Virus record (IMG/VR): IMGVR_UViG_2806310948_000001
Span: 1 to 64,000 of that record
Strand: one strand, 5' to 3'
DNA from: a virus
Taxonomy: Duplodnaviria; Caudoviricetes
DNA: 64,000 nucleotides
Below, piece after piece: positions 3,516 to 34,187 of the stretch; the stretch's first letter is position 1; the number at the start of each line of letters is the position of its first letter. A model generated the notes under the pieces. That model had not been told where the DNA came from. It worked only from the letters and a program-made list of their open reading frames with translations, and did not search any database. A program made the position numbers and the translations under genes.

Positions 3516-5103
3516 ACGTTCTTGGCAATTTGGGATAAAGGACCAAATCAAAATCATCTAATTTTTTGGTTTTGGACCGTCCGACGGTATGGAGCTTTGT
3601 ATATTCAACCTTTTCCAGAACTTCCTTTAACATATCGTTTTTAGCAGAAGCATTGGGTAATTGCCAATAAATGTCTATTAAGTTTTCCACCTTTGGAATC
3701 AGATTCTTGCGGTTGTTCTCTCTTAATTTTTCGTTATTTATATCTGCAGAAAGTTTAGCGATATTTTTTTCGGACTCTGCGATTTTTTCAGACAGAGATT
3801 TAGAGCGAATAAGGAATGTCTCAGTATCATAGATGCCCTGTTCGAGCAAATCATGAGTTTTATCTAGCTGTTTGGTTAAGGTATTAAGTTCTTTAATTGC
3901 GGCATTATACGCCTGCTCTTTCACAATCAAAAGAGAGTGCATTTCTCTTGGCATATCATCCCATGATAATTTATATTCATTTACCCAATCTCGCAGAGCA
4001 TCTATAATCCTTTTTTCTACTATATAAATATAAGATCCTTTGCATGGACAGCCATATGTGCGGCATTCCACGCCAAAATCTCTCCGGTTAGCATTAGATC
4101 TATAGCGAAGTGGGCGTCCGCAGATTCCACACACAACTACACCTGCAAGAGGGTTTTTTAATTCTTTTTCTATGACAACTGATGGATTTCCTCGACGAAG
4201 AAACAACTCTTGAGCCTGATTAAATATTTCGTCTGATATAATAGCCGGATGAAGACCTTCAACTAATATTTGTTCTTCTTCTGGCGGTATAATACGGGTC
4301 CTTTTTACAGCGCCATCAACAATAATTTTCTTGTCTTTTTTATATCCCCAACGTATTTTTCCGGTATATACTGGATTATGAAGAATCCAGTAGACGCTCC
4401 TGGGGTTCCATGTAGGATTTCCGGTAGGAGAATCTATACTTAGATTGGTTAACCGATGTGCAATAGCATGGGCTCCCAGCTTGCGATAACTTCCGTCCTC
4501 TTGGAGCTGTCCATTCACAAACCAATCGAATATCATTTTCACAATGGGAGTTTCCTTTTCGTTTGGAGAGAGAGTATATCCCTTTCCACTTTCGACATGA
4601 ATACGGTCATAACCGTATGGAGCCTTACTTCCGGTATGCTTGCCCTCTTTAGCAGAAGACATTCTTCCCTGAGTCAGACGCCTGCGAATGGTTTTATACT
4701 CTCTGCGGCTCATAAAAAGACCAAATTCGAAATATTCCTCATCGTATTCGTTATTAGGATCGTAGGTTTTGAGAGGGGTTATAATCTTAGTATTTGAAAA
4801 TTTAAATGCCCTGGAGACAATGCCTTGGTCAATAGTATCTCCTCTGGCAAGACGTTCTATTTCGACAACCAGAACACCATCCCACATCTCGTTTTCAACT
4901 TCTGTCAGAAGATGCTGCACAACAGGACGGGAGGAGATTGTCTCTCCGGATACAACTTCACGGTAGATTTCGGTTACGTCAAGATGCATTCTTTTGGCCA
5001 GATCCAGTAAGATCTTTTCGTGCCTGGCCAACGTTTCCATTTCTCCATTGGCTTCAGCATCAATATCAGCCCTTGATTTTCTTAAATATAAACAATATGG
5101 CAT
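3514..5103 (-). CDS. Large serine recombinase (prophage integrase)
   Basis: YLRKSR catalytic Ser, EIERLARGD, recombinase domain NPVYTG, Zn ribbon CGICG...C...C, coiled coil. Confidence 0.95.
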   Translation of the reverse strand: MPYCLYLRKSRADIDAEANGEMETLARHEKILLDLAKRMHLDVTEIYREVVSGETISSRPVVQHLLTEVENEMWDGVLVVEIERLARGDTIDQGIVSRAFKFSNTKIITPLKTYDPNNEYDEEYFEFGLFMSRREYKTIRRRLTQGRMSSAKEGKHTGSKAPYGYDRIHVESGKGYTLSPNEKETPIVKMIFDWFVNGQLQEDGSYRKLGAHAIAHRLTNLSIDSPTGNPTWNPRSVYWILHNPVYTGKIRWGYKKDKKIIVDGAVKRTRIIPPEEEQILVEGLHPAIISDEIFNQAQELFLRRGNPSVVIEKELKNPLAGVVVCGICGRPLRYRSNANRRDFGVECRTYGCPCKGSYIYIVEKRIIDALRDWVNEYKLSWDDMPREMHSLLIVKEQAYNAAIKELNTLTKQLDKTHDLLEQGIYDTETFLIRSKSLSEKIAESEKNIAKLSADINNEKLRENNRKNLIPKVENLIDIYWQLPNASAKNDMLKEVLEKVEYTKLHTVGRSKTKKLDDFDLVLYPKLPRT

Positions 5104-5131
5104 ATTGCCTCACCTCGATTAGATAATAAAA

Positions 5132-5177
5132 ATGTCAAACGAATCTGTTTGACATAAACCGTATATAGCGATATAAT
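5132..5177 (+). promoter_or_regulatory. Consensus sigma-A promoter for a small RNA, with an overlapping palindrome
   Basis: TTGACA 5149-5154, 17 bp, TATAAT 5172-5177; perfect inverted repeat ATGTCAAAC-N6-GTTTGACAT 5132-5155. Confidence 0.8.
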
Positions 5178-5183
5178 GTACTT

Positions 5184-5280
5184 AACAAGAGAACCGTTGG
5201 CCAGTGTACACCTGACCGCCGGCAGAAGTAATTACTAAAAATAGCGCCTTACTTTTCCAGAGCAGGGGCGCTATTTTTTA
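5184..5280 (+). ncRNA. Putative type I antitoxin RNA (about 95 nt)
   Basis: Consensus promoter, no ORF, ends at a bidirectional terminator overlapping the 3' end of a convergent toxin ORF. Confidence 0.7.
5237..5278. terminator. Bidirectional terminator shared by toxin mRNA and antitoxin RNA
   Basis: AAAAATAGCGCC...GGCGCTATTTTT. Confidence 0.8.
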
Positions 5281-5357
5281 TGCATAATATTAACAACAAG
5301 AGTTACGACTGCACAAAGCATAATTACAAAGGTAAAAAGATCTCCATATGTAACCAT
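5271..5357 (-). CDS. Type I toxin, putative holin-like toxin family (28 aa); not in the ORF track
   Basis: MVTYGDLFTFVIMLCAVVTLVVNIMHKK: one hydrophobic helix plus basic tail, preceded by RBS AAAGGAGG. Confidence 0.85.
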   Translation of the reverse strand: MVTYGDLFTFVIMLCAVVTLVVNIMHKK

Positions 5358-5440
5358 CAGCACCAGCCTCCTTTCACATAAGTGTCCGGCGGCTGACATA
5401 ACACCCCAACGGTTCCCCGGTTAAATACACTATTCTTTTT

Positions 5441-5986
5441 TTATTTTTCTTCCAGCTCCTCCATCATGGCCAGAAAGAGACGTTTTCCTCTTTTAGACAT
5501 CTTGCGGAACTTCAGAATAATATCTTGTTCATCTTCAGAAGCAATGGCACAACTAAACGCAGAATTTCCTATTAAATAATCTATTGAAGTATCAAGGGCT
5601 TTAGAGAGCCTGCCAGCAACATCTATCCCCGGGATAACTGTTCCTGCCATGATACCCTCAAAAGAGTCTTCGGAAATTTCTGATTTAGTAATCAGATCGG
5701 ACTGGTTCAGCTGCAACTGATCCATCCGGTCTTTTATTTTAGCAGAAAGGGTAGGAGCTTCTTTCTGCTCTGTTGTAGAATATTTTTCAGTGGTCCGGCC
5801 CAGAAGATAATCTGCCGGTACGCCAAAATATTTTGCGCATCGATTAACCAGTTCAGTGGATGGTCTGGTGTAACCTCTCTCGATATTCGAGATTACCTGG
5901 CTGGAAACTCCTACAGCTTTTCCGAGTTCAGATTGTCGCAAACCTGATTCAGAACGGAGAGACTTGATTCTTTTACTAATTGTCAC
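5441..5986 (-). CDS. XRE-family regulator with two tandem HTH domains
   Basis: RQSELGKAVGVSSQVISNIERG...DYLLG and a second LNQSDL...IDYLIG unit. Confidence 0.85.
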   Translation of the reverse strand: MTISKRIKSLRSESGLRQSELGKAVGVSSQVISNIERGYTRPSTELVNRCAKYFGVPADYLLGRTTEKYSTTEQKEAPTLSAKIKDRMDQLQLNQSDLITKSEISEDSFEGIMAGTVIPGIDVAGRLSKALDTSIDYLIGNSAFSCAIASEDEQDIILKFRKMSKRGKRLFLAMMEELEEK

Positions 5987-6030
5987 GAATAAAGCACCTC
6001 TTTAATAAAAAAGATTTATAAGTCTTTTGA

Positions 6031-7170
6031 TTAGTTGATAGGCTCATATTTGTATCCGTTTTCAGTTGCTGAGATATTACCAATGGCTTCGGTAATACTT
6101 CCATCCTTATTGATTTTTCCATATGTCCCTAAGTTGGTAAAAGAACCGGCAAAGCAAATTCCTGTACCATCGTCGCATATGATAGAGAACCAGTTATAAC
6201 CACTATCTTTCACTTTGGTGTTGAGAAAATTTGCATAATCCTTTTCGGAAATTTGTTTCAGAGTATCTTTCGGAATAATAATATAAGCTCTCTTACCTAT
6301 AATATCTGTTCCAGTGCCATTATAAACGTCTGCTTTGAATATAGTTGCATTGGCGAGGCGTTGATCAGCCTCTGAGAGTGAGGAAGGAACAGGTGTTGGT
6401 GAAGAGAATGGTGTTGGAACTGGAGAGGGAGTTGGAATAGGTGTACTTGATGCAATCGGTTCTGAATTTGGGAAAATTATATTACCACTTTCATATATAC
6501 AGTCATTACTGGTTCCGTTAGCATAATAAAAAATTCCTTCTCCATCAAGAAGTCCAGTGTCTTTATTTGTTGCGAATGAACCGGTAACGTGCGAACCATC
6601 AGTAAAGAAAAAACTACCATCTCCATTTATTTGACCGTTAGAAAAATTCCCCTCATATCGTTGCCCGTTTTCGTAATATAATGTTCCATATCCTCCGTAA
6701 AGATTATCTTTAAATTCACCAACGTATCTTTCTGTTAAGGTTAATGAGGTACCTTTTCCGGAAGCTATCTCATTATTTAATTCGCCAAAATAAGTACCAG
6801 CACTTGATGACATTAAACATTTATCTCCAGAAAGATAGTCCTTGCTATAAGTGCCAGTCTTAATATCTCCATTATCGAAAAAAGATGTACCTTTTCCTTC
6901 TAAATGTCCATCAATCCACTCGCCTATATAGATCCAAGAGACTCCATCTGTGTTCTGAGTTTTAAATTCTCCGACACCACAAGGTAAACCGTTTTTTATA
7001 CTGCCTGTATACAAACCAGTTCTTTCACCAAAGAAGAAAGGCAAGGAAACCTCATGATTTTCAACATATGAGAAATCAGAGACATTATCTTTAGCATTGA
7101 GCTGGCTAATTGGCAGAACAAAAGTAGCAATAAATGAAAAAAACAAAGCCGATAATATTTTCTTTTTCAT
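6031..7170 (-). CDS. Secreted MORN-repeat protein with a P/T/S-rich linker
   Basis: Signal peptide MKKKILSALFF..., repeats such as YIGEWIDGHLEGKG and RYEGNFSNGQINGDG, PTPSPVPTP linker. Confidence 0.8.
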   Translation of the reverse strand: MKKKILSALFFSFIATFVLPISQLNAKDNVSDFSYVENHEVSLPFFFGERTGLYTGSIKNGLPCGVGEFKTQNTDGVSWIYIGEWIDGHLEGKGTSFFDNGDIKTGTYSKDYLSGDKCLMSSSAGTYFGELNNEIASGKGTSLTLTERYVGEFKDNLYGGYGTLYYENGQRYEGNFSNGQINGDGSFFFTDGSHVTGSFATNKDTGLLDGEGIFYYANGTSNDCIYESGNIIFPNSEPIASSTPIPTPSPVPTPFSSPTPVPSSLSEADQRLANATIFKADVYNGTGTDIIGKRAYIIIPKDTLKQISEKDYANFLNTKVKDSGYNWFSIICDDGTGICFAGSFTNLGTYGKINKDGSITEAIGNISATENGYKYEPIN

Positions 7171-7212
7171 ATTTTTATTTTCCTTTCTTGCTTCGGTACC
7201 ACTCGAAGCTTA

Positions 7213-7803
7213 TTATTTTGCTTGTTTATGAACCATTTTAGTAGGAAGAGCTTCTTCGCGCCTCTGCTCTTTTAACAACTTTTTCATATCGCCGATAATA
7301 ATGTCTCGATTATCCTCATTTAATTCGAGAAATACATTTAAAAATTTTTGAGCAATTTCATCAAGAGGATTACCATAAGTTTGTTCTTCAAATTCTGGAC
7401 CGCCTATAATATATTCATCCGAGACACCATAAAAATCAGCTATTGTATATATGTCAGAACGAAAAAGACTTGAATCGGTATAATAACCAGAAAGAATTTC
7501 TGTTTTTAACAAAGGCTTTAAATCTTCTATATTTTTACGAGAATGAGCAGCTAGTTTGGAAATTCTATTCGAAATATCACGGCATTCGATAAATTGTTTT
7601 GTAGTAGAAGTATCATTACCTAAAAGATAATCTGTTGTAACACCGAATATAGAAGCTATATTTGCCAGAGTATCATTGTTAGGACTAGATACTCCATTTT
7701 CCCAGCTACTAACTGTTTGCTTTATTACCCCCAATTTACTTCCCAATTCTGATTGAGTTAAATGGTTTTGCTTCCGCAATTCCTTAATTCTTTTTCCAAG
7801 CAT
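7213..7803 (-). CDS. cI-like XRE repressor (start corrected to 7803)
   Basis: MLGKRIKELRK...TQSELG...VSSWENG; AGGAGG RBS; divergent from the cro-like gene. Confidence 0.85.
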   Translation of the reverse strand: MLGKRIKELRKQNHLTQSELGSKLGVIKQTVSSWENGVSSPNNDTLANIASIFGVTTDYLLGNDTSTTKQFIECRDISNRISKLAAHSRKNIEDLKPLLKTEILSGYYTDSSLFRSDIYTIADFYGVSDEYIIGGPEFEEQTYGNPLDEIAQKFLNVFLELNEDNRDIIIGDMKKLLKEQRREEALPTKMVHKQAK

Positions 7804-7828
7804 AGTATAACCTCCTGACGAAATTATA

Positions 7829-8182
7829 GTCCAAAAAAAGTGGACATACAATATAAAAAAGAAAAGTCCAAAAATAATTGACAAAAGCATTGACAATCCA
7901 TAAATAATGGATTATTATAAAAATGTCCATAAATATTGGACAGAAAGGAGAGAGATTTTGATGGCAACAACGCTGAATGTATCGCAAAGAGTAAAAGATG
8001 CCCGTTGTGATGCCAATTTAACACAGACAGAACTTGGACGAAAGATAGGAAAGTCCAAGCAATGGGTATCGGAACTTGAACGAGGAAATATTCGTTTGAG
8101 TTATGAAATGGCAGTAGTTATTTCCGAGGTATGCAATAAATCCACCGATTTTTTTTGTACCTAAAGTCCATTTTAAATAGAC
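7829..8182. promoter_or_regulatory. Lysis/lysogeny operator array, five 17-bp palindromes (consensus GTCCA-N7-TGGAC)
   Basis: Copies at 7829-7845, 7866-7882, 7896-7912, 7925-7941 and 8166-8182; interleaved with TTGACA boxes. Confidence 0.8.
7961..8164 (+). CDS. Cro-like XRE regulator
   Basis: LTQTELGRKIGKSKQWVSELERG; RBS AAAGGAG. Confidence 0.85.
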   Translation: MATTLNVSQRVKDARCDANLTQTELGRKIGKSKQWVSELERGNIRLSYEMAVVISEVCNKSTDFFCT

Positions 8183-8218
8183 TTTATATTAATTATATAA
8201 TGTGGAGGAAAAAAATAA

Positions 8219-8698
8219 ATGCCTAAGTTTGCTACAAAAGCGGCCGACAATATGTTTTGTCAGGCACGATACGAGGCGGCAAAGTTCAACGAACGGTTAA
8301 GTAGCCGCGAAGGAGCTGCTGAGGAACTTGGTGTTGACCGGACAAGGCTTGCACGAATAGAACTTGGCAGTGTTACCCCTTATCCAGAGGAAGTGCTTCT
8401 GATGGCGGATATCTATAGAGCCCCTGAATTGAAAGGTAATTATTGCCGGGAAATGTGCCCGCTGGGAAAAGGAATGCCAAAGATCGAGAGTCATCAGGAC
8501 ATTGATAGGATTGCACTCAGGGCGCTGTGCTCATTCCGGAAGATTAACGAAGCCAAAGAACTCCTGTTAGATATTACAGCAGATGGAGTTATTACAGAGG
8601 ATGAAAAGTCAGATTTGGAGAAGATCATAAACACCTTGGATGAGGTTAATGAGGTAACTCAGAACCTGAAAAACTGGATTGAAAAAACATTGAAATGA
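8219..8698 (+). CDS. Phage HTH regulatory protein (CII/XRE-like)
   Basis: SREGAAEELGVDRTRLARIELG HTH; position after cro. Confidence 0.7.
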   Translation: MPKFATKAADNMFCQARYEAAKFNERLSSREGAAEELGVDRTRLARIELGSVTPYPEEVLLMADIYRAPELKGNYCREMCPLGKGMPKIESHQDIDRIALRALCSFRKINEAKELLLDITADGVITEDEKSDLEKIINTLDEVNEVTQNLKNWIEKTLK

Positions 8699-8712
8699 AT
8701 GGAGGTGCAGGC

Positions 8713-8895
8713 ATGGGAATCGTCAAAGATTACAAAATTGGAAATACCAGCATAAAGATAGCTGATGATTATTGCTTATCAAAAACAGATGAAGAAGTAG
8801 AAGAGATCTTGCATCGTATCGCAGTATCTGCATATAGACATTTCAATGCCAAAGCCGAAAACTATGCAGATGAAACAATGATCAACGCAGGTTGA
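8713..8895 (+). CDS. Hypothetical phage protein
   Basis: GGAGG RBS, operon context. Confidence 0.6.
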   Translation: MGIVKDYKIGNTSIKIADDYCLSKTDEEVEEILHRIAVSAYRHFNAKAENYADETMINAG

Positions 8896-8911
8896 TAGAA
8901 AGAGGTGTACA

Positions 8912-9076
8912 TTGCTTACAACGGAAGATGTGAAGAAATATCACGCAACAGTTGAACGGATTTTAAATGCGTTAGATAACAGCCCGGTGCCAATCAGTTG
9001 GCGTAAAATGGACAGATGCGCATTACAGAGCGTTATCGCCAAAGAATTGATCTTAATTGATAAGGAGGCAAGATAA
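8912..9076 (+). CDS. Small hypothetical protein (54 aa, TTG start); not in the ORF track
   Basis: RBS GAGGTG, open frame MLTTEDVKKYHATVERIL...DKEAR, stop overlaps the next ATG. Confidence 0.6.
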   Translation: MLTTEDVKKYHATVERILNALDNSPVPISWRKMDRCALQSVIAKELILIDKEAR

Positions 9077-26325: not shown

Positions 26326-26556
26326 ATGGATAAAAGTTTATATAATGCAAGCGGATGTAAGGATAGAACAGCACATGATGCGATCTGTGCAGCGGATAGA
26401 ACCCGAACATTAGTGTACAGGGCAAGCAGGACAAAAAAGGATGAGGAAGCAGAACTGTTTGTGAAGATGGTAAAAAGACTTGCAAAAGGATTTGGGTTCA
26501 AACTCTGTGACAGAATCAAATTCGAGGATCCTGAGACTGGAAAGAAATATGTGTGA
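26326..26556 (+). CDS. Hypothetical phage protein
   Basis: NASGCKDRTAHDAI pattern. Confidence 0.6.
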   Translation: MDKSLYNASGCKDRTAHDAICAADRTRTLVYRASRTKKDEEAELFVKMVKRLAKGFGFKLCDRIKFEDPETGKKYV

Positions 26557-27137
26557 GGTATGGCATGGATACAGAGAAAAAAGTACAATTCGTAGCACTG
26601 ACAAAAGAGGAAATTGATGCAATGATTCAGCAGGCTGCTCTTGCCGGAGCACAGGTTGCGTCTGATGCAATGATGGTAGGGCAGAGAAAAAGCGAGAAGG
26701 AGAAGATTGATCGTCGTTTGCATAACACTGATTTGCTCCTTAGAAATTACAGAACTTTAAAGGCGAGCTACGAAAATGCCGTCTACAAGTCCAAGGAAGG
26801 GGAGGTTACAGAGGTACTGGAAGACATCATGACCATGAAAGATGATAAGGTCATAGTAGAGAGCATCAAAACTTCGGCCAAAAGAACCGCTATCATGGTA
26901 CAGCATATTGACAAAATGCTTGATGTATACCGTATCTATTGTAGCAAATTATCGGAAAAAGATAAGAGACGCTATAAGATTATTAAAGCCCTTTACATAT
27001 CAAAGACGCCAATGACAATTGCAGAAATTTCAAAAAAATTTTCGGTCAGCAAGGTCACTGTATATGAAGATATCAAAATTGCGAAAGAGCGTTTATCTTC
27101 GCTGTTTTTCGGGATTGACGGACTGAGATTTTTTTGA
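26553..27137 (+). CDS. Late transcription regulator (ArpU/RinA-like position, C-terminal HTH)
   Basis: MTIAEISKKFSVSKVTVYEDIK HTH; last early gene before the late promoter. Confidence 0.75.
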   Translation: MRYGMDTEKKVQFVALTKEEIDAMIQQAALAGAQVASDAMMVGQRKSEKEKIDRRLHNTDLLLRNYRTLKASYENAVYKSKEGEVTEVLEDIMTMKDDKVIVESIKTSAKRTAIMVQHIDKMLDVYRIYCSKLSEKDKRRYKIIKALYISKTPMTIAEISKKFSVSKVTVYEDIKIAKERLSSLFFGIDGLRFF

Positions 27138-27171
27138 AAAATAGAAAATATCGAAAAGCGTTAACTTAACA

Positions 27172-27200
27172 TTGACTTAATAACGAAAATGGTGTATGAT
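27172..27200 (+). promoter_or_regulatory. Candidate late promoter
   Basis: TTGACT, 17 bp, TATGAT; TTAAC-type repeats overlapping the -35. Confidence 0.6.
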
Positions 27201-27229
27201 AATCGGGTAAAATTTTATCATGAGCCATG

Positions 27230-27260
27230 AGCCATCAGAGTGAAATCTGGTGGCTTTTTT
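27230..27260 (+). terminator. Intrinsic terminator just downstream of the late promoter
   Basis: AGCCATCAGA-GTGAAA-TCTGGTGGCT plus T run. Confidence 0.75.
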
Positions 27261-27335
27261 AATGTAAACCTTTGGACGGGAGGGATATAAATGTAAAGGT
27301 AAAATGCTCCTTTAGAAAAATAAAGGAGATTATAC

Positions 27336-28715
27336 ATGAATGGAATAATCATACTGTTTGTTTATGCAGTAATCATGATACTGGCGACAGTGACCATGAC
27401 TAAAAAAGAAAAAAATGTAGTAAATTTTTGTGTTGGAAGCCGGTCTGAGAACTGGATCCTGTCCGCACTGAGTATTGCGGCGACGTGGATCTGGGCGCCG
27501 GCTTTGTTTGTTTCAACAGAAAAAGCATATTCGGCCGGATGGATTGGGCTTTTCTGGTTCTTAGTGCCAAATGCTTTATGCTTGGTGATATTTATTCCGT
27601 TTGCAAAGAGAATCCGGAAAGAAATGCCAGAGGGAATGACGCTTTCAGGTTACATGAAAGAGAAATACAGTTCTGATGGGGTAAAAAGAGTTTATCTTTT
27701 TCAGCTGATCGGACTGTCCATGCTGTCAACAGGTGTTCAGCTTCTTGCAGGAAGCCAGATCCTGAGTGCAGTTACAGGAATTTCATTTAGAACCATGACG
27801 ATCCTACTTGCCATTATTGCAATTTCGTACTCTTTGTTTTCTGGAATCAAAGCATCCATGCTGACCGATGCAATTCAAATGGTATTCATGCTTATAGCTT
27901 GTAGCCTATTTGTTATATTTGGATTGCGAAACACGGGCGCAGAGAGCATTTTACAGGGCATTAACGGCATATCTGGAGACTATGCAAAGCTATTCAGTGG
28001 AAAAGGAATGGAGATATTTCTTTCGTTTGGACTTCCGACAACTATCGGACTTATATCGGGACCATTTGGTGATCAGAGTTTCTGGCAGAGAGCCTTTGCC
28101 GTGAAGAAAGAGAAGCTGGGAAGAGCGTTTCTTCTTGGAGCGGTTCTTTTTGCGGTGGTTCCGCTGTCAATGGGAATCCTCGGACTAATGGGAGCAGGTA
28201 CAGGATATCAAGCACAGGACCTTGGAACCATTAATTTCGAGCTAATCCGGCATTTCTTTCCATCATGGGCGGTACTTCCATTTCTTTTTATGATTATTTC
28301 CGGATTGCTTTCTACGGTGGATAGTAATCTATGCGCTGTTTCTTCACTGACGACAGATCTGTCAGGCGGAAAGGATATCAGAAAAACCAGAACAGCAATG
28401 GTAGTTTTACTGGCAGCAGGAATCCTGATTGCAAATATACCGGGAATAACAGTTACGCACCTGTTTCTGTTCTATGGGACATTGAGAGCATCCACACTGT
28501 TACCAACAGTACTGACACTGAAAGGAGTTCGCCTGACATCTGGAGGAATAATCGCAGGAGTGATTACTTCATTGGCAGTAGGGCTTCCTGTATTCGCCTA
28601 CGGCAGCATCCTGAACAGTGGACCATATAAAACAATGGGAAGCCTCTTAACTGTCTTGTTAAGCGGTTTAGTGACCCTGATAGCAACCAGAACGGAGGCA
28701 GGACATGCTCGGTAG
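27336..28715 (+). CDS. Sodium:solute symporter family transporter
   Basis: About 12-13 hydrophobic helices; SIAATWIWAPAL, MLTDAIQ, DQSFWQRAFA, LLSTVDSNL. Confidence 0.88.
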   Translation: MNGIIILFVYAVIMILATVTMTKKEKNVVNFCVGSRSENWILSALSIAATWIWAPALFVSTEKAYSAGWIGLFWFLVPNALCLVIFIPFAKRIRKEMPEGMTLSGYMKEKYSSDGVKRVYLFQLIGLSMLSTGVQLLAGSQILSAVTGISFRTMTILLAIIAISYSLFSGIKASMLTDAIQMVFMLIACSLFVIFGLRNTGAESILQGINGISGDYAKLFSGKGMEIFLSFGLPTTIGLISGPFGDQSFWQRAFAVKKEKLGRAFLLGAVLFAVVPLSMGILGLMGAGTGYQAQDLGTINFELIRHFFPSWAVLPFLFMIISGLLSTVDSNLCAVSSLTTDLSGGKDIRKTRTAMVVLLAAGILIANIPGITVTHLFLFYGTLRASTLLPTVLTLKGVRLTSGGIIAGVITSLAVGLPVFAYGSILNSGPYKTMGSLLTVLLSGLVTLIATRTEAGHAR

Positions 28716-29481
28716 AAAACAGTCGATTCGAAATGAACAGCAATGGCAGGAAGCTATTGATCATATCGAAGAGACTGTATCGAAAAAAGAATTGGACCAG
28801 CTGATAAAAGTGACGGTCAAAACTATCAAAGAAAAATGTAAGGGTAAGAAAGTTGCTTACGCATGGAGCGCGGGCAAAGATTCGCTTGTGCTTGGAGAGA
28901 TATGTGAAAGAGCGGGCATTGATCAGAGCGTTCTGGTGAGATGCAATCTGGAATATCCGGCATTTATCGAATGGATTGATCAGAACAAACCTTCAGGATT
29001 GGAAATTATCAATACTGGTCAGGACTTGGAATGGCTCAGAAAGCATCCAGACATGCTGTTCCCGGATAAAAGCAACAAAGCGGCACAGTGGTTCCATATC
29101 GTACAGCACAGGGGACAAGCACGATATTATAAAGAGCATCAGTTAGAAATACTCCTGCTCGGACGCAGAAAGGCAGACGGCAATTATGTTGGAAAAGATA
29201 ATATCTACACTAATTCAGCCGGAATCACCAGATACAGCCCTCTTGCAGAGTGGAGGCACGAAGATATCCTTGCATACATTCACTATTATGACGTAAAGCT
29301 CCCGCCCATATATGACTGGGAGAAAGGATATTTATGCGGTACACATCCATGGCCTGCCAGACAGTACATGGAGACAGAACAGCAGGGATGGAAAGAAGTT
29401 TACGACATTGATAAGACCATAGTTGAAAATGCGGCACAGCATTTCGATGGAGCCAGAGAATTTTTAAAAGCTATCAAATAG
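28705..29481 (+). CDS. PAPS-reductase-like PP-loop (adenine nucleotide alpha-hydrolase) protein
   Basis: AWSAGKDS PP-loop, LLGRRKADG, RYSPLAEW. Confidence 0.85.
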   Translation: MLGRKQSIRNEQQWQEAIDHIEETVSKKELDQLIKVTVKTIKEKCKGKKVAYAWSAGKDSLVLGEICERAGIDQSVLVRCNLEYPAFIEWIDQNKPSGLEIINTGQDLEWLRKHPDMLFPDKSNKAAQWFHIVQHRGQARYYKEHQLEILLLGRRKADGNYVGKDNIYTNSAGITRYSPLAEWRHEDILAYIHYYDVKLPPIYDWEKGYLCGTHPWPARQYMETEQQGWKEVYDIDKTIVENAAQHFDGAREFLKAIK

Positions 29482-29530
29482 CCGGTTGCAGCCGGAAGCC
29501 ATTGCCCTTCAGAAATGGAGGACAAGCAAG

Positions 29531-30184
29531 ATGAAAGTAACAATCAAAAAATTGAGTGTTCTGAAGCATCCTGAGAAAAATGTCAGGATTCATTCAGAAC
29601 AGCAGATCAGGGAACTGAAGAGATCACTTGAAAAGTTTGGTCAGACACGAGCACTGGTCATTGATGAAAACAATATCATTCTGATTGGTAACGGTTTGTA
29701 TGAAGCTATGGTGAGTCTTGGCTATCAGGAAGCAACTGTATATGTAAAAGCAGGGCTTTCTGAGAACGATAAAAAGAAACTCATGATAGCTGATAATAAG
29801 ACCTATGCTCTTGGAATCGACAATCTGGAAACCCTGAATGAGTTCCTTGAGGAACTGCAGGGGGATCTGGATATCCCTGGATATGATGAAGAAATTTTAC
29901 AGCAGATGGTCGCTGATGCGGATGAAGTTACCGAAAAACTCTCTGAGTATGGAACTTTAGATGATTCCGAAATCCAGAAGATTAAAGAAGCAAATGAAAA
30001 GAGAGAACAGAAAGCCGCAGTGGATACACAATCAGCTGATAATGGAGAGAGTAGCCCGGAAAAGCCGAACCCGCAGAACGAACAGCCAGCAGAAGAGCAG
30101 AATGCCACTGAAACCGAACCAGAGATCACAGAGACCAGAAGGTTTGTTGTCTGCCCTAAATGCGGTGAGAGAATATGGCTGTAA
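29531..30184 (+). CDS. ParB N-terminal-domain protein with C-terminal CPKCG
   Basis: HPEKNVRIH...SLEKFGQ...IIDENNIILIGNG...IADNK. Confidence 0.85.
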   Translation: MKVTIKKLSVLKHPEKNVRIHSEQQIRELKRSLEKFGQTRALVIDENNIILIGNGLYEAMVSLGYQEATVYVKAGLSENDKKKLMIADNKTYALGIDNLETLNEFLEELQGDLDIPGYDEEILQQMVADADEVTEKLSEYGTLDDSEIQKIKEANEKREQKAAVDTQSADNGESSPEKPNPQNEQPAEEQNATETEPEITETRRFVVCPKCGERIWL

Positions 30185-31314
30185 AACGCTGCGAATCAAA
30201 CATTGATGTTGTGAAGGCTGCGGAAATCCGAATAAAAAATGTATTTGGAAATGGTCTGCCAGTGTTCTTTTCTTTCAGTGGGGGAAAGGACAGCTTGTGC
30301 TTGGCACAGTTAATGGTAAACCTAGCCAACCGTGGCGAGATTAACATGAAACAGCTTACCGTGCAATTCATAGATGAAGAAGCAATATTTCCTTGCATGG
30401 AAGAAATGACAAAGAAATGGCGCAGAATCTTTATGATGATGGGAGCTAAATTTGAATGGTATTGTGTAGAAGTAAAACATTACAATTGCTTTAACGAGCT
30501 GTCGAATGACGAGACATTTATTTGCTGGGATTCAACAAAGCAGGATGTGTGGGTACGACAGCCTCCTTCTTTTGCAATAAGGAGTCATAAACTGTTAAGA
30601 CCGAGGATTGATGCTTATCAGGATTTCCTGCCGCGAACTACTGTATCAGGTATTACGATGGTCGGAATCCGTACAGCGGAATCCGTGCAGCGTCTTCAGA
30701 ATATTGCGTCTATGACAAAAGCCGGAAACAGAATGACATCCAAGAAGCAGGTATTTCCAATCTACGACTGGACTGATAATGATGTATGGCTTTTCTTACT
30801 GAGGAACTATGTAGATATCCCGGAGATATATCTGTTTCTCTGGCAGTCAGGATCCAGTAAACGTCAGATGCGGGTATCGCAGTTTTTTTCTGTTGATACA
30901 GCCAGAAGCCTTGTGAAGATGAATGAGTATTATCCAGATCTTATGGAGAGGGTCATTCGGAGAGAGCCGAACGCATATCTGGCCGCCCTGTACTGGGATA
31001 GCGAGATGTTTGGCAGAAGTTCCAGAAAGCGGAAAGAATCTGAACAGGGACAGGAGCAGAAAGATTACAAACAGGAATTGATAAATCTGTTTGATCATAT
31101 GGAAATTTTTGATACTCCGCATAAACGGCATGTAGCAGAGAGATACCGTAATTTCTTTATTGCAGTATCTGCTATTGCAACACCGGAGGACTGCAAACAT
31201 ATTTACGAGGGTCTGATATCTGGTGATCCTAAGATGCGGACGTTCAGGGCACTGTATCAGAGAATATATGGACGGTATATCAATAACGCAAAGAAGGAGA
31301 GAAAACATGGATAG
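30175..31314 (+). CDS. PAPS-reductase-like protein, IbrA/YbdN-like
   Basis: SFSGGKDS, VGIRTAESVQR, FPIYDWTDNDVW. Confidence 0.85.
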   Translation: MAVKRCESNIDVVKAAEIRIKNVFGNGLPVFFSFSGGKDSLCLAQLMVNLANRGEINMKQLTVQFIDEEAIFPCMEEMTKKWRRIFMMMGAKFEWYCVEVKHYNCFNELSNDETFICWDSTKQDVWVRQPPSFAIRSHKLLRPRIDAYQDFLPRTTVSGITMVGIRTAESVQRLQNIASMTKAGNRMTSKKQVFPIYDWTDNDVWLFLLRNYVDIPEIYLFLWQSGSSKRQMRVSQFFSVDTARSLVKMNEYYPDLMERVIRREPNAYLAALYWDSEMFGRSSRKRKESEQGQEQKDYKQELINLFDHMEIFDTPHKRHVAERYRNFFIAVSAIATPEDCKHIYEGLISGDPKMRTFRALYQRIYGRYINNAKKERKHG

Positions 31315-31828
31315 TAAGTTAACAGCGCCGCTGTCCACGTTGCGTTGGGTGGACAGAAATTTATTAAAGCCGAATGACTATAACCCGAACAAAGTTTCGA
31401 AAGAGAACTTGAAACTGCTTATTCAGTCTATTCTTACGAACGGATGGACACTTCCGATAGTAGTCCGACCGGATATGACGATCATTGATGGCTTTCATAG
31501 ATGGACAGTTGCAGGAATGGAGCCTTTGCTTTCAAAACTGGATGGCAAGGTTCCTATAGTTATTGTGGAGCATAAAGAGCATTCAGAAGATATTTACGGT
31601 ACCGTTACTCATAACAGGGCAAGAGGTACGCATTTGTTGGAACCTATGAAGAAAATCGTAAAAGAACTCATGGATGAAGGCAAAACTGTAGAAGAAATCG
31701 GTAAACAGCTTGGAATGAGACCGGAAGAAATCTTCCGATTGTCTGATTTTTCAAAAGAAGACTTCTTGAAGATGATGACAAAAGGGGTGACGGGCTATTC
31801 AAAAGCTGAATTTATCACAAAAATTTAA
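31307..31828 (+). CDS. ParB/Srx-like protein, IbrB/YbdM-like
   Basis: PNDYNPN, NGWTLPIVV, IIDGFHR, TVTHNRARG. Confidence 0.88.
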   Translation: MDSKLTAPLSTLRWVDRNLLKPNDYNPNKVSKENLKLLIQSILTNGWTLPIVVRPDMTIIDGFHRWTVAGMEPLLSKLDGKVPIVIVEHKEHSEDIYGTVTHNRARGTHLLEPMKKIVKELMDEGKTVEEIGKQLGMRPEEIFRLSDFSKEDFLKMMTKGVTGYSKAEFITKI

Positions 31829-31859
31829 CGATGTTCTATTGCACATAGAACAAAAAGCG

Positions 31860-31887
31860 GGGAGAGGGAGTACAACCTCTCCCTTTT
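31860..31887 (+). terminator. Hairpin plus T4 between the cassette and terS
   Basis: GGGAGAGG-N8-CCTCTCCC-TTTT. Confidence 0.55.
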
Positions 31888-31927: not shown

Positions 31928-32728
31928 TTGGCAAGGGCAAGAAGTCCCAACAGCATTGAAGCTGAGGAAATGTATAAGAGAGGGATGAAACTTGTTGACA
32001 TTGCCAAGAAGTTGGATGTTCCTGCCAGTACAGTTCGACGCTGGAAATCAACCCAGAATTGGGATGGAGATACAAAAAAGAAAAAAAGCGAACGCTCGCC
32101 AAAGAAAAAAGCGAACGCTCGGCATAAAGGCGGACAGCTTGGAAACAAAAATGCTGTAGGAAACAAAGGCGGTCCCCTAAAGCCGGGAGATAAGATCGCA
32201 GAGAAACACGGGGCGTATTCTTCTGTCTATTGGGACGTCCTTGATGAGTCTGAAAAAGATATGATCGAAGATATCCCGATGGATGAAGAAATGCTCCTGA
32301 TCGAACAGATTCAGCTCTTTGCCGTGAGGGAAAGACGAATCATGGCGGCAATCAATAAATACCGGAATATGAATGGAGAAGTATCTTTGTTCGGCTTCAC
32401 CAGAACTGAAGACAAGCGAGCTTTCAAATCGGATGAAGATAAACAGCTCTATGAAGAACGCATTGAAGAAAAGGTTGCTTCTGGAGATCGTCTTCCGGGT
32501 AACACATATAACATGATGACAAATATGGAAAACAAGGATAATATGATCGCCAGACTTGAAAAAGAGCTGTCAACTGTGCAGTCGAAGAAGACCAAAGCCA
32601 TTGAGGCACTTGCGAAGCTGAGACTGGAGAAGCAGAAGATTGCCGGAGAAAGCAAGGGCAATGAGGTTGTTCGTGCATGGGCTGAAGCTGTAGTGAAAGC
32701 AAGGAGGGAAGAGAAACATGATGGATGA
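31928..32728 (+). CDS. terS: Terminase small subunit
   Basis: N-terminal HTH (LVDIAKKLDVPASTVRRWK), GGQLGNKNAVGN, KHG; precedes terL. Confidence 0.85.
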   Translation: MARARSPNSIEAEEMYKRGMKLVDIAKKLDVPASTVRRWKSTQNWDGDTKKKKSERSPKKKANARHKGGQLGNKNAVGNKGGPLKPGDKIAEKHGAYSSVYWDVLDESEKDMIEDIPMDEEMLLIEQIQLFAVRERRIMAAINKYRNMNGEVSLFGFTRTEDKRAFKSDEDKQLYEERIEEKVASGDRLPGNTYNMMTNMENKDNMIARLEKELSTVQSKKTKAIEALAKLRLEKQKIAGESKGNEVVRAWAEAVVKARREEKHDG

Positions 32729-34187
32729 TACGGCGTTCTCTGAGTTCCTTGACGAAAGCATTCCCTTGTGGCGTGATGATCCAGTCATGTTTTTTCGGGA
32801 AGTTCTGAATTTCGAACCAGATGAATGGCAGGCACAAGCAGCTAGAGACTTGGCTGCAAACCCAAAGGTAAGCATTAAATCCGGACAGGGTGTTGGAAAG
32901 ACTGGTCTTGAGGCAGCGGTGTTCCTGTGGTTCGTTACCTGTTTTCCGCACCCAAGAATCGTTGCGACAGCACCAACCAAACAGCAGTTGCACGATGTCC
33001 TCTGGTCTGAGATTTCCAAGTGGATGAGCAAGTCCGAACTGCTCTCTATACTTCTAAAATGGACAAAGACATATGTTTATATGGTTGGAGAGGAAAAGCG
33101 TTGGTTTGGTGTTGCCAGGACTGCTACAAAGCCAGAGAATATGCAAGGTTTCCATGAAGATAACATGCTTTTTATCGTTGATGAAGCTTCCGGTGTTGCG
33201 GATCCAATCATGGAGGCTATCCTTGGTACCTTATCTGGAGCAAACAATAAACTTCTTCTGTGCGGAAACCCAACGAAGACATCTGGAACCTTTTATGATT
33301 CCCATACAAGAGACAGGGCATTGTACAAATGCCATACGGTTTCTTCTATGGACAGCACCAGAACAAATAAAGAGAACATAGATTCTCTTGTTCGAAAATA
33401 CGGATGGGATTCTAACGTGGTCCGTGTTCGTGTCAGGGGCGAGTTCCCGAACCAGGAGGACGACGTATTTATTCCGCTGAGCATTATTGAACAATGTAGC
33501 AGCAGGCTTTTAGAACTGGATGATACAGATGGAATGCAGTTTGTATCATTGGGGGTGGATGTGGCCCGTTTCGGAGATGATGAAACGATCATATATCGTA
33601 ATTATCATGGTCATTGCAAAATAGTCCGGAACAGGCGAGGACAGAACCTGATGGCCACTGTAGGGGATATCGTACAGGAATTCAAGAAGATATACAGAGA
33701 ACATCTAGCGTATGAAGGCAAGGTATATGTGCAGATTGATGATACAGGACTTGGAGGAGGCGTCACTGACCGACTAAAGGAAGTCCGGAAAGAACAAAAG
33801 CTGTACAAGATGCAAGTTATCCCGATAAATGCCGCTGAAAAGATTGAGACTGATACGGCAGCAGGTAAAGACGCAGCTGAAAGGTACAATAACCTGACTA
33901 CCGCTATGTGGGCCAGTATGCGAGATCTCCTTGATAACAAACAGATTGTTATTGAAGACGATGAGCAGACAATTGGTCAGCTTTCTTCCAGAAAATACAC
34001 CATGGCCAGTAATGGAAAGCTTGAGATTGAACCAAAAAAGGAAATGAAGAAAAGAGGACTTGATTCTCCTGACCGGGCAGATGCTCTTGCGTTGGCATTA
34101 TATCTCGGAAAGATTAAGAAGCATACCGGTAGTGCACCAAGTGTTGGCACGATGAAGAAATTGTCAAAAGATAATTATTGGGGCTGA
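32718..34187 (+). CDS. terL: Terminase large subunit
   Basis: Walker A SGQGVGKT, Walker B FIVDEA, GNP motif III, nuclease GVDVARFGDD and SPDRADA. Confidence 0.95.
   Translation: MMDDTAFSEFLDESIPLWRDDPVMFFREVLNFEPDEWQAQAARDLAANPKVSIKSGQGVGKTGLEAAVFLWFVTCFPHPRIVATAPTKQQLHDVLWSEISKWMSKSELLSILLKWTKTYVYMVGEEKRWFGVARTATKPENMQGFHEDNMLFIVDEASGVADPIMEAILGTLSGANNKLLLCGNPTKTSGTFYDSHTRDRALYKCHTVSSMDSTRTNKENIDSLVRKYGWDSNVVRVRVRGEFPNQEDDVFIPLSIIEQCSSRLLELDDTDGMQFVSLGVDVARFGDDETIIYRNYHGHCKIVRNRRGQNLMATVGDIVQEFKKIYREHLAYEGKVYVQIDDTGLGGGVTDRLKEVRKEQKLYKMQVIPINAAEKIETDTAAGKDAAERYNNLTTAMWASMRDLLDNKQIVIEDDEQTIGQLSSRKYTMASNGKLEIEPKKEMKKRGLDSPDRADALALALYLGKIKKHTGSAPSVGTMKKLSKDNYWG

Follow-up and report, generated by a model that had tools for sequence, protein, structure and literature searches.

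A solute transporter gene obligatorily linked to ParB1 and IbrA/IbrB-type genes in phages of gut Clostridia, with a possible role in phage DNA modification

The stretch of DNA analysed here (the window) is 64,000 nucleotides long, covering positions 1 to 64,000 of the IMG/VR virus record IMGVR_UViG_2806310948_000001, and is part of a 72-kb provirus that CheckV rates as complete. The genomes matching it most closely are from Blautia and Lachnospiraceae, among them a Blautia wexlerae metagenome-assembled genome whose PP-loop protein PP2 (see below) is 92% identical. Ahead of its terminase genes, positions 27336-31828 (+) are filled by five open reading frames (ORFs), which encode a transporter of the SSS family, a first PP-loop enzyme (PP1), a first ParB-like protein (ParB1), a second PP-loop enzyme of the IbrA/YbdN type (PP2) and a second ParB-like protein of the IbrB/YbdM type (ParB2). 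In this study, we found that the importer is obligatorily linked to ParB1, IbrA and IbrB. Matches to the importer-linked cassette occur in more than 500 IMG/VR contigs and in 228 stretches of species-representative bacterial genomes, and recurrence in hundreds of contigs and genomes puts the arrangement far beyond chance. All five genes are under purifying selection, with ratios of nonsynonymous to synonymous divergence (dN/dS) of 0.03-0.13, a strength like that seen for the terminase. The obligatory presence of a dedicated transporter points to an exogenous substrate, which gives a handle on the chemistry of a widespread and poorly characterised gene pair. Tentatively, and with slightly less than even confidence, we favour a reading in which the cassette would import a solute late in infection, activate its substrate with ATP through PP-loop chemistry, and act under ParB guidance on phage DNA before packaging, in a protective role.

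Linkage of the transporter gene to ParB1, PP2 and ParB2

A transporter-seeded search of IMG/VR recovered 114 stretches that encode relatives, and the 80 loci fetched from these include SSS relatives down to 46% identity. ParB1, PP2 and ParB2 follow the transporter gene in nearly every one of these contigs that is long enough, and the cassette stays together even where the terminase and activator have diverged or been exchanged. The same association was found from the other end of the cassette. A PP2-seeded search of bacterial genomes, one per species, gave 228 matching stretches; 80 loci were kept, all of them from Clostridia (80/80), and 72 had enough upstream sequence. Cultured strains among the matches include Acetatifactor muris DSM 23669, Parablautia intestinalis D8-82 and Lachnospiraceae bacterium A4. 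The SSS gene lies no more than 4.5 kb upstream of PP2 in 71 of these 72, and the remaining locus, in Eubacterium plexicaudatum ASF492, also has an SSS gene, located beyond an insertion in PP1. All five genes are present in 64/72 loci, while PP1 is absent from 7/72.

In a distant PP2 clade, BLAST found no SSS match. However, all 72 of its contigs (72/72) encode a 333-aa polytopic membrane protein at the transporter position. Profile-profile comparison with hhalign identifies it as homologous to the SSS core, though shorter (probability 91.7%, E 7.6e-7). The SSS type and this short homologue were the only importer types in the loci sampled by the two PP2 searches. One member of the clade has been cultured, the Faecalibacterium phage FP_Taranis; its genes run from a RinA-like activator through a "transporter membrane protein", a "nuclease" (corresponding to ParB1), IbrA and IbrB to TerS and TerL. 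Three loci that at first appeared to be transporter-less are not real exceptions: in L264 an insertion splits PP1, and L177 and L098 are 5'-truncated cassettes. Such truncated cassettes are the sole census loci without a membrane gene. Failure of the symporter to co-segregate with the PP-loop and ParB genes had been named in the original prediction as grounds for giving it up; we observed no such failure, either in the 72 Clostridia genomes or, counting the short homologue, in the 72 contigs of the distant clade. The gene-neighbourhood census thus bears out the view of the cassette as one conserved unit of which the importer is an integral part. The predicted co-occurrence of all five genes stands for the transporter, ParB1, PP2 and ParB2, but not for PP1, which is dispensable in many loci. 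PP1 is also absent from most loci of the short-transporter clade, and its only match among GenBank phage records is an unannotated faecal scaffold. PP1 is a frequent but dispensable accessory.

Several loci carry variants of the arrangement. Locus L003 (IMGVR_UViG_3300045988_103440, 4470-8959) has a recombination break inside the cassette: relative to the window, its transporter and PP1 are 90-92% identical, with synonymous divergence (dS) of 0.46-0.81, while ParB1, PP2 and ParB2 are 100% identical, with dS <0.02. This step in identity indicates that recombination can separate the transporter and PP1 from the other three genes. The E. plexicaudatum ASF492 locus (L264; AQFT02000001.1, 888-5245), from a cultured mouse-gut strain, is a natural PP1 disruption, in which a ~3.3-kb insertion with ORFs of 457 aa and 268 aa, possibly an insertion sequence, splits the gene. 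L035/L343 (IMGVR_UViG_3300028969_000023) is a deletion variant that has lost PP1, ParB1 and PP2, leaving the transporter and a short ParB2 remnant directly ahead of terS. In L351 (152-2440), the transporter is fused to a C-terminal part of ~290 aa that contains a coiled stretch and a hydrophobic, signal-like segment and is rich in beta structure at its end. PP1-like, ParB_N and PAPS_reduct genes follow; the extension may be a periplasmic or outer-membrane addition in a diderm host. Two members of the short-transporter clade, L135 (914-1654) and L138 (6580-7401), encode an extra protein of 246-273 aa with a DxD-like motif and a match to phrog_854 "glucosyltransferase" (E 9e-13). Relatives of this protein in Actinoplanes phage phiAsp2 belong to a glycosyltransferase/methyltransferase cluster that adjoins a head or tail gene. 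We considered the gene as evidence for DNA glycosylation and rejected it as ambiguous, since the phiAsp2 relatives could act on virion proteins. Finally, L222 (366-3803) encodes a remote member of the transporter subfamily (P0155, 247 bits) and, after it, a 655-aa protein of another family whose PP-loop motif is WSGGIDST. The two may be a second, independent pairing of an importer with a PP-loop protein.

The five proteins and the late leader

The transporter is a clear member of its family, passing the Pfam PF00474 cut-off of 22.8 bits with 64.4 bits; its TIGR00813 score is 111 bits, under the cut-off of 184. Its AlphaFold2 model (predicted local distance difference test score, pLDDT, 89.3; predicted template modelling score 0.88) has a LeuT-type fold. 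In Foldseek this model matches DUR3 with a template modelling (TM) score of ~0.8 at 22-23% identity, and CHT1, NIS, SiaT and SGLT also reach ~0.8. A profile of the transporter family, run against sequences of solved structures, ranks DUR3 (E 2e-30) and CHT1 (E 1e-23) first, with vSGLT (E 1e-13) and SMVT well behind. Both sequence and model place the protein closest to DUR3, which transports urea in plants, and to CHT1, which transports choline. The NCBIfam equivalog models for PanF (79.6 vs 328) and PutP (52.1 vs 515.5) are not reached, and the ESM Atlas gave just the automatic label "pantothenate permease". The transporter gene has a dN/dS of 0.07-0.13. Residues S326 and T327 are invariant in the "GLLSTVDSNL" segment of the phage family, and going by the motifs of PutP and vSGLT they may be the Na2-site Ser/Thr pair that PutP has in transmembrane segments 8/9.

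DUR3 is proton-coupled, and the urea site of the Arabidopsis protein comprises W93, W95, T98, Y117, Q124, N305, Y315 and W338 (PMC11840088). We mapped these residues by a HMMER alignment that reproduced the published numbering. Two of them survive, W93 as W51 and W95 as W53; the other six become, in the same order, A56, F75, C82, L239, F249 and F272, and the mapped positions are invariant or nearly so throughout the phage family. With only two of eight residues retained, the transporter does not have the DUR3 urea site, and an aromatic pocket without hydrogen-bonding side chains makes urea an unlikely substrate. From this alignment, made at ~22% identity, the pocket does not look like a urea pocket, and a cationic amine or an apolar or planar solute would fit it better. 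The amine-like substrate proposed in the original prediction is thus compatible with the aromatic, non-hydrogen-bonding pocket of this DUR3/CHT1-like transporter. Attempts to read the substrate from the gene contexts of distant transporter relatives were uninformative, as these contexts are mixed (hydantoinase/NMT1; sulfatases/TrmB; a mobile element).

Of the two PP-loop enzymes, PP1 has conserved WSxGKD, G-R--DGN and Y-P---W-H motifs and no invariant cysteine; its "LCGTH" segment is not conserved in orthologues. PP2 has an SGGKDS PP-loop, a single invariant cysteine (C97) and a helical C-terminal domain. BLASTP aligns it with E. coli YbdN at 26% identity over 350 aa (E 1e-24), extending to residue 326, and Pfam DUF3440 gave no match in PP2 at E <= 0.01. 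The AlphaFold2 model of PP2 (pLDDT 75.7) finds generic PP-loop folds in Foldseek, namely NcsA, FAD synthase, PAPS (3'-phosphoadenosine 5'-phosphosulfate) reductase, TtuA, TilS and LarE. All models for CysH, adenosine 5'-phosphosulfate (APS) reductase and CysD score far under their cut-offs (NF002537, 24.9 vs 154; TIGR02057, 22.2 vs 254), as does the DndC model TIGR03183 (20.9 bits vs 290.4). PP2 has weak matches to DndC (E 1e-7) and BrxP (E 1e-6) models. The ECGLH motif is absent from both enzymes, and with no invariant cysteine in PP1 and one in PP2 the reported absence of an ECGLH tail and of a cysteine cluster holds, as does the earlier conclusion that these are not assimilatory PAPS/APS reductases. 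Judged by profiles and cysteines, neither PP-loop enzyme is CysH or DndC.

ParB2 stands just above the ParB_N cut-off (26.9 vs 26.3 bits), and its IIDGFHRW motif provides box II of the family. Together with NDYNPN, THNRARG and a C-terminal helix-turn-helix (HTH)-like segment, this gives a protein that is 41% identical to E. coli YbdM (E 2e-33). The matches to YbdN and YbdM justify the IbrA-like and IbrB-like labels given in the original prediction. ParB2 is also the most conserved component of the cassette, at 60-80% identity where PP2 is just 41-50% identical. ParB1 gave no Pfam match and falls in PHROG ParB-like families only. It has GNGL instead of the GxxR arginine, an acidic linker and a conserved C-terminal CPxCGxxIWL, and on these sequence features is probably a non-catalytic adaptor. 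ParB1 matches the N-terminus of phrog_498 "DNA methyltransferase" (E 5e-28) and that of MTase_II (E 7e-12), and ParB2, too, has matches to the ParB-N part of DNA methyltransferases from phages. A recent duplication of PP2 and ParB2 giving rise to PP1 and ParB1 was considered and rejected, as there is no similarity beyond the PP-loop. Our search for close solved structures found none for PP1, ParB1, PP2 or ParB2.

The features of the region are collected in Table 1. As originally described, five ORFs lie on the + strand between the late promoter and terS, and Pfam and PHROG matches provide their identities. The cassette follows a leader with the late promoter and a terminator, and TerS, TerL and a Mu-type portal are encoded downstream. 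Genes overlap by 8-11 nt at their junctions, apart from a gap of 4 nt between PP1 and ParB1 by the ORF calls. The true start of ParB1 is likely the ATG at 29531 and that of ParB2 likely the ATG at 31307. A megablast search of GenBank phages gave no match. With a promoter/terminator leader upstream and a second terminator-like hairpin downstream, the cassette is the first unit of the late operon, and is probably expressed late through antitermination, with its genes translationally coupled.

Table 1. Positions of the cassette genes, flanking genes and candidate signals in the window
Feature	Positions	Strand	Evidence or remark
HTH protein (phrog_1558), context	26553..27137	+	HTH_11 E 8e-9; phrog_1558 E 7e-54
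Sigma-70-like late promoter, TTGACT-17-TATGAT	27172..27200	+	10/12 matches; candidate
Terminator-like hairpin and T-run in leader	27229..27256	+	
Hairpin in which CTCCTT pairs with AAGGAG, the ribosome-binding site of the transporter gene	27307..27328	+	Inverted repeat, reported on - strand
SSS-family transporter, 459 aa	27336..28715	+	Pfam SSF (PF00474) 64.4 bits; phrog_20720 E 2.7e-224
PP1, 258 aa, PAPS-reductase-fold PP-loop ATP pyrophosphatase	28705..29481	+	PAPS_reduct E 4e-13; WSAGKDS
ParB1, 232 aa by ORF call	29486..30184	+	phrog_620 "ParB-like" E 7e-48
PP2, 379 aa, IbrA/YbdN-type PP-loop enzyme	30175..31314	+	PAPS_reduct; phrog_2302 E 5e-100; SGGKDS
ParB2, IbrB/YbdM-type	ORF 31223-31828, gene (likely start) 31307..31828	+	ParB_N 26.9 bits; phrog_2159 E 4e-73
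Palindrome TGTTCTAT-N5-ATAGAACA	31832-31852		Between ParB2 and terS
GC-rich terminator-like hairpin	31860-31883		Between ParB2 and terS
Terminase, context	Small subunit 31928-32728, large subunit 32718-34187	+	

The HTH protein encoded upstream of the leader is probably the late-gene activator. Its homologues directly precede TerS in Enterococcus phage EFC-1, FP_Brigit and phiCDKH02, and the phiCDKH02 homologue is annotated as "sigma factor-like HTH". The leader that follows is 198 nt long (27138-27335), and we judged its conservation across 9 loci whose flanking genes are 38-99% identical. TTGAC in the candidate promoter and GTAAAAT on the 3' side of its -10 element are invariant in these loci, and diverged loci have a hairpin of other sequence with a T-run at the position of the leader terminator. 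In the hairpin that would sequester the ribosome-binding site (RBS) of the transporter gene, CTCC is invariant and the GGAG of the RBS nearly so. By its sequence, the leader resembles an antitermination unit of the Q type, to which this hairpin would add translational control. A riboswitch that would name the ligand was considered and rejected, as the best Rfam hit had an E value of 0.63, no family was matched and the layout is instead that of promoter-terminator antitermination. Beyond ParB2, several diverged loci likewise have a hairpin with a T-run ahead of terS, and the palindrome at this junction could be a binding site of ParB2 or TerS.

The corresponding slot of Faecalibacterium phage FP_Brigit (L348, 1-4483) is occupied differently. 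There, a methionine adenosyltransferase, a homologue of the HTH activator, a Dam-like and phage-GNAT-like protein and a ParB-N protein are encoded in a row before terS, in what looks like a DNA-modification slot dependent on self-supplied S-adenosylmethionine (SAM). The statement that ParB-N genes by the terminase accompany DNA-modifying enzymes is therefore true of the slot before terS in this related phage.

Possible functions of the cassette

According to the reading we favour, the DUR3/CHT1-like symporter would bring a small solute of the gut lumen into the cell late in infection, acting as an importer rather than as a sensor, and the solute might be a cationic amine or another apolar or planar compound. 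One or both PP-loop enzymes would adenylate their substrate with ATP, which could be the imported compound itself or a site on the nucleic acid. ParB2, with its ParB/Srx and HTH parts, would then direct this chemistry to concatemeric phage DNA just before packaging, aided by the degenerate adaptor ParB1, and the packaged DNA would carry a mark protecting it against host restriction, anti-restriction being the presumed benefit. Evidence for DNA as the target is circumstantial but consistent: it comprises the matches of the ParB-N parts to methyltransferases, the weak matches to DndC and BrxP, the HTH-like segment of ParB2, the FP_Brigit slot and the terminase or portal neighbours of distant IbrA/IbrB pairs in the phages Pipefish and FCL-2. 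A more specific claim, that this is the first phage nucleic-acid modification pathway relying on its own importer, with a solute, possibly a cationic amine, put on DNA by ParB/Srx-guided IbrA chemistry, is somewhat more doubtful, and we put its likelihood at around a third.

A number of observations weigh against DNA modification. Substitution at base carbonyls by PP-loop chemistry would alter base pairing, and a plausible DNA product is hard to name as a result. The provirus has no thymidylate-synthase-like gene able to supply a 5-hydroxymethyl-pyrimidine handle, and no N6/N4 methyltransferase. ParB/Srx folds are also found in small-molecule kinases, and PAPS-reductase folds in adenylyltransferases such as FAD synthase. 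The distant IbrA/IbrB pairs that we examined in GenBank phages carry no annotated transporter, so the chemistry of IbrA/IbrB does not by its nature require a substrate from outside. The short transporter lacks the second tryptophan and the equivalent of F272, so that what we deduce for the pocket is not transferable to the short clade. Lastly, E. coli IbrAB reportedly activates prophage eib gene expression; this is the only functional datum known to us for the family, and it points to regulation.

Regulation is the best of the alternatives, although we regard it as unlikely. IbrA and IbrB would co-activate late or prophage genes, and the transporter would take up or sense an environmental metabolite, which would adjust late transcription or determine when packaging occurs. 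The family is annotated as "co-activator of prophage gene expression", the cassette directly follows the late promoter, terminator and activator gene, and ParB2 has an HTH-like segment. ParB-fold proteins moreover include nucleoside triphosphate-dependent transcription regulators such as DndB (PMC12704722), a precedent for a role of this kind. Set against this, a dedicated late activator gene is already present upstream, and a regulator made from the first genes of its own operon would come too late to start that operon. Two ATP pyrophosphatases with intact PP-loops under strong purifying selection also suggest catalysis.

Slightly less likely again is a small-molecule pathway in which the importer, a ParB/Srx-fold kinase and adenylyltransferases would turn an imported precursor into a nucleotide-linked metabolite or cofactor, in aid of replication or against a depletion-type defence, leaving the DNA unmodified. 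The ParB-CTPase fold includes the ATP-binding SerK and sulfiredoxin and serves as a nucleotide-binding module for enzymatic activity (PMC12704722), a precedent for such a kinase. FAD synthase/FMN adenylyltransferase is among the nearest solved relatives of PP2, SEA-PHAGES records label some homologues "adenylyltransferase", and a distant transporter relative adjoins an unrelated protein of 655 aa that has an SGGxDS PP-loop motif. A pathway that bypasses DNA, however, fits poorly with the placement of the cassette in the packaging operon, the similarity of the ParB-N parts to the N-termini of DNA methyltransferases, the HTH-like segment of ParB2 and the DNA-modification enzyme in the same slot of FP_Brigit; the distant IbrA/IbrB pairs without an annotated importer count against it as well.

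We consider tRNA modification improbable. In this case the PP-loop enzymes would join an amine taken up by the importer to a base of tRNA, in the manner of TilS and lysine, to adjust late translation or to escape anticodon nucleases. The tRNA-modifying enzymes NcsA, TtuA and TilS do lead the fold matches of PP2, and the structure of TilS with ATP, magnesium and L-lysine (2e89) provides a precedent for amine and PP-loop base chemistry. These matches are nevertheless weak (E ~1e-4, TM ~0.3) and fold-generic, the domain search detected no THUMP, PUA or TilS C-terminal domain, and the partner proteins are of the ParB type. The usual virome annotation of these genes as "cysH", handled as a sulfur auxiliary metabolic gene with a DUF3440 clade noted (10.1101/2021.01.05.425418), implies that they boost host assimilatory sulfate reduction; Pfam PAPS_reduct matches support this, but the NCBIfam scores for CysH, APS reductase and CysD far under cut-off, the missing ECGLH, the lack of an invariant cysteine in PP1 and the obligatory link to ParB-like proteins and a DUR3/CHT1-like transporter rather than to sulfate uptake or further cys genes make it very improbable, and it is the only alternative that is set aside with confidence.

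The question extends well beyond this provirus. IbrA/IbrB-type pairs of a "PAPS reductase" and a ParB-like protein are far more widespread than the importer, with PP2 matching 223 GenBank phage records and E. coli K-12 carrying the paralogues YbdN/YbdM, and virome studies count such genes as sulfur-metabolism cysH. Among phages of Clostridia from human and animal guts, the version with the importer is very common. In the literature that we searched, we found no biochemical function for IbrA/IbrB (YbdN/YbdM, DUF3440), no description of the cassette and no functional study of a phage PAPS reductase with a ParB protein. If the product is a DNA mark, the cassette would represent a new class of phage DNA modification. 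Such a mark would matter for how phages evade restriction, for artefacts in the sequencing of gut viromes and for the connection of phage fitness with diet or lumen chemistry. Should the more specific claim of an importer-dependent pathway acting on phage DNA hold, the biochemistry of IbrA/IbrB (YbdN/YbdM) would be revealed and much of the gut-virome "cysH" signal would be reclassified.

Comparison with known systems

The phage transporter resembles DUR3 and CHT1 in that these are its top sequence and fold matches, and the W-x-W motif of transmembrane segment 1 (AtDUR3 W93/W95) and P342 are conserved. It differs from DUR3 in its length of 459 aa, without the DUR3 C-terminal domain, and in an identity of just 17-23%. 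In place of the polar residues T98, Y117, Q124, N305 and Y315 of DUR3 it has A, F, C, L and F, and in place of W338 an F.

E. coli IbrA/IbrB (YbdN/YbdM) and the PP2-ParB2 pair are alike in homology, in gene order, in the overlap of the two genes (PP2 stop at 31314, ParB2 start at 31307) and in the motifs SGGKDS, NDYNPN, DGFHR and HNRARG. Distant IbrA/IbrB pairs often adjoin terminase or portal genes, as in Mycobacterium phage Pipefish and Flavobacterium phage FCL-2. Beyond the pair itself, the phage cassette has an importer of its own, an additional, degenerate ParB-N protein and usually one more PP-loop enzyme, and in contrast to the IbrA/YbdN family, DUF3440 was not detected by Pfam in PP2.

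With DndB/DndC and the BrxP protein of type 4 bacteriophage exclusion (BREX), the cassette shares the combination of a PAPS-reductase-fold PP-loop enzyme with a ParB-superfamily protein, found there in a DNA-modification context. The Dnd partners DndA, DndD and DndE have no counterparts in the phage cassette, and we know of no Dnd or BREX system with an importer. DndC uses cysteines that coordinate a 4Fe-4S cluster and others that form a Cys dyad (PMC10853773), whereas PP2 has none of these and only one invariant cysteine.

The ParB-N-linked DNA-modifying enzymes of phages, as in FP_Brigit and in methyltransferases fused to ParB-N, occupy the same slot, between the late activator and terS, and have the same type of ParB-N partner. 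The difference lies in the catalytic partner, which in the cassette described here is a PP-loop ATP pyrophosphatase and not a SAM- or acyl-CoA-dependent transferase, and in the substrate, which is apparently extracellular.

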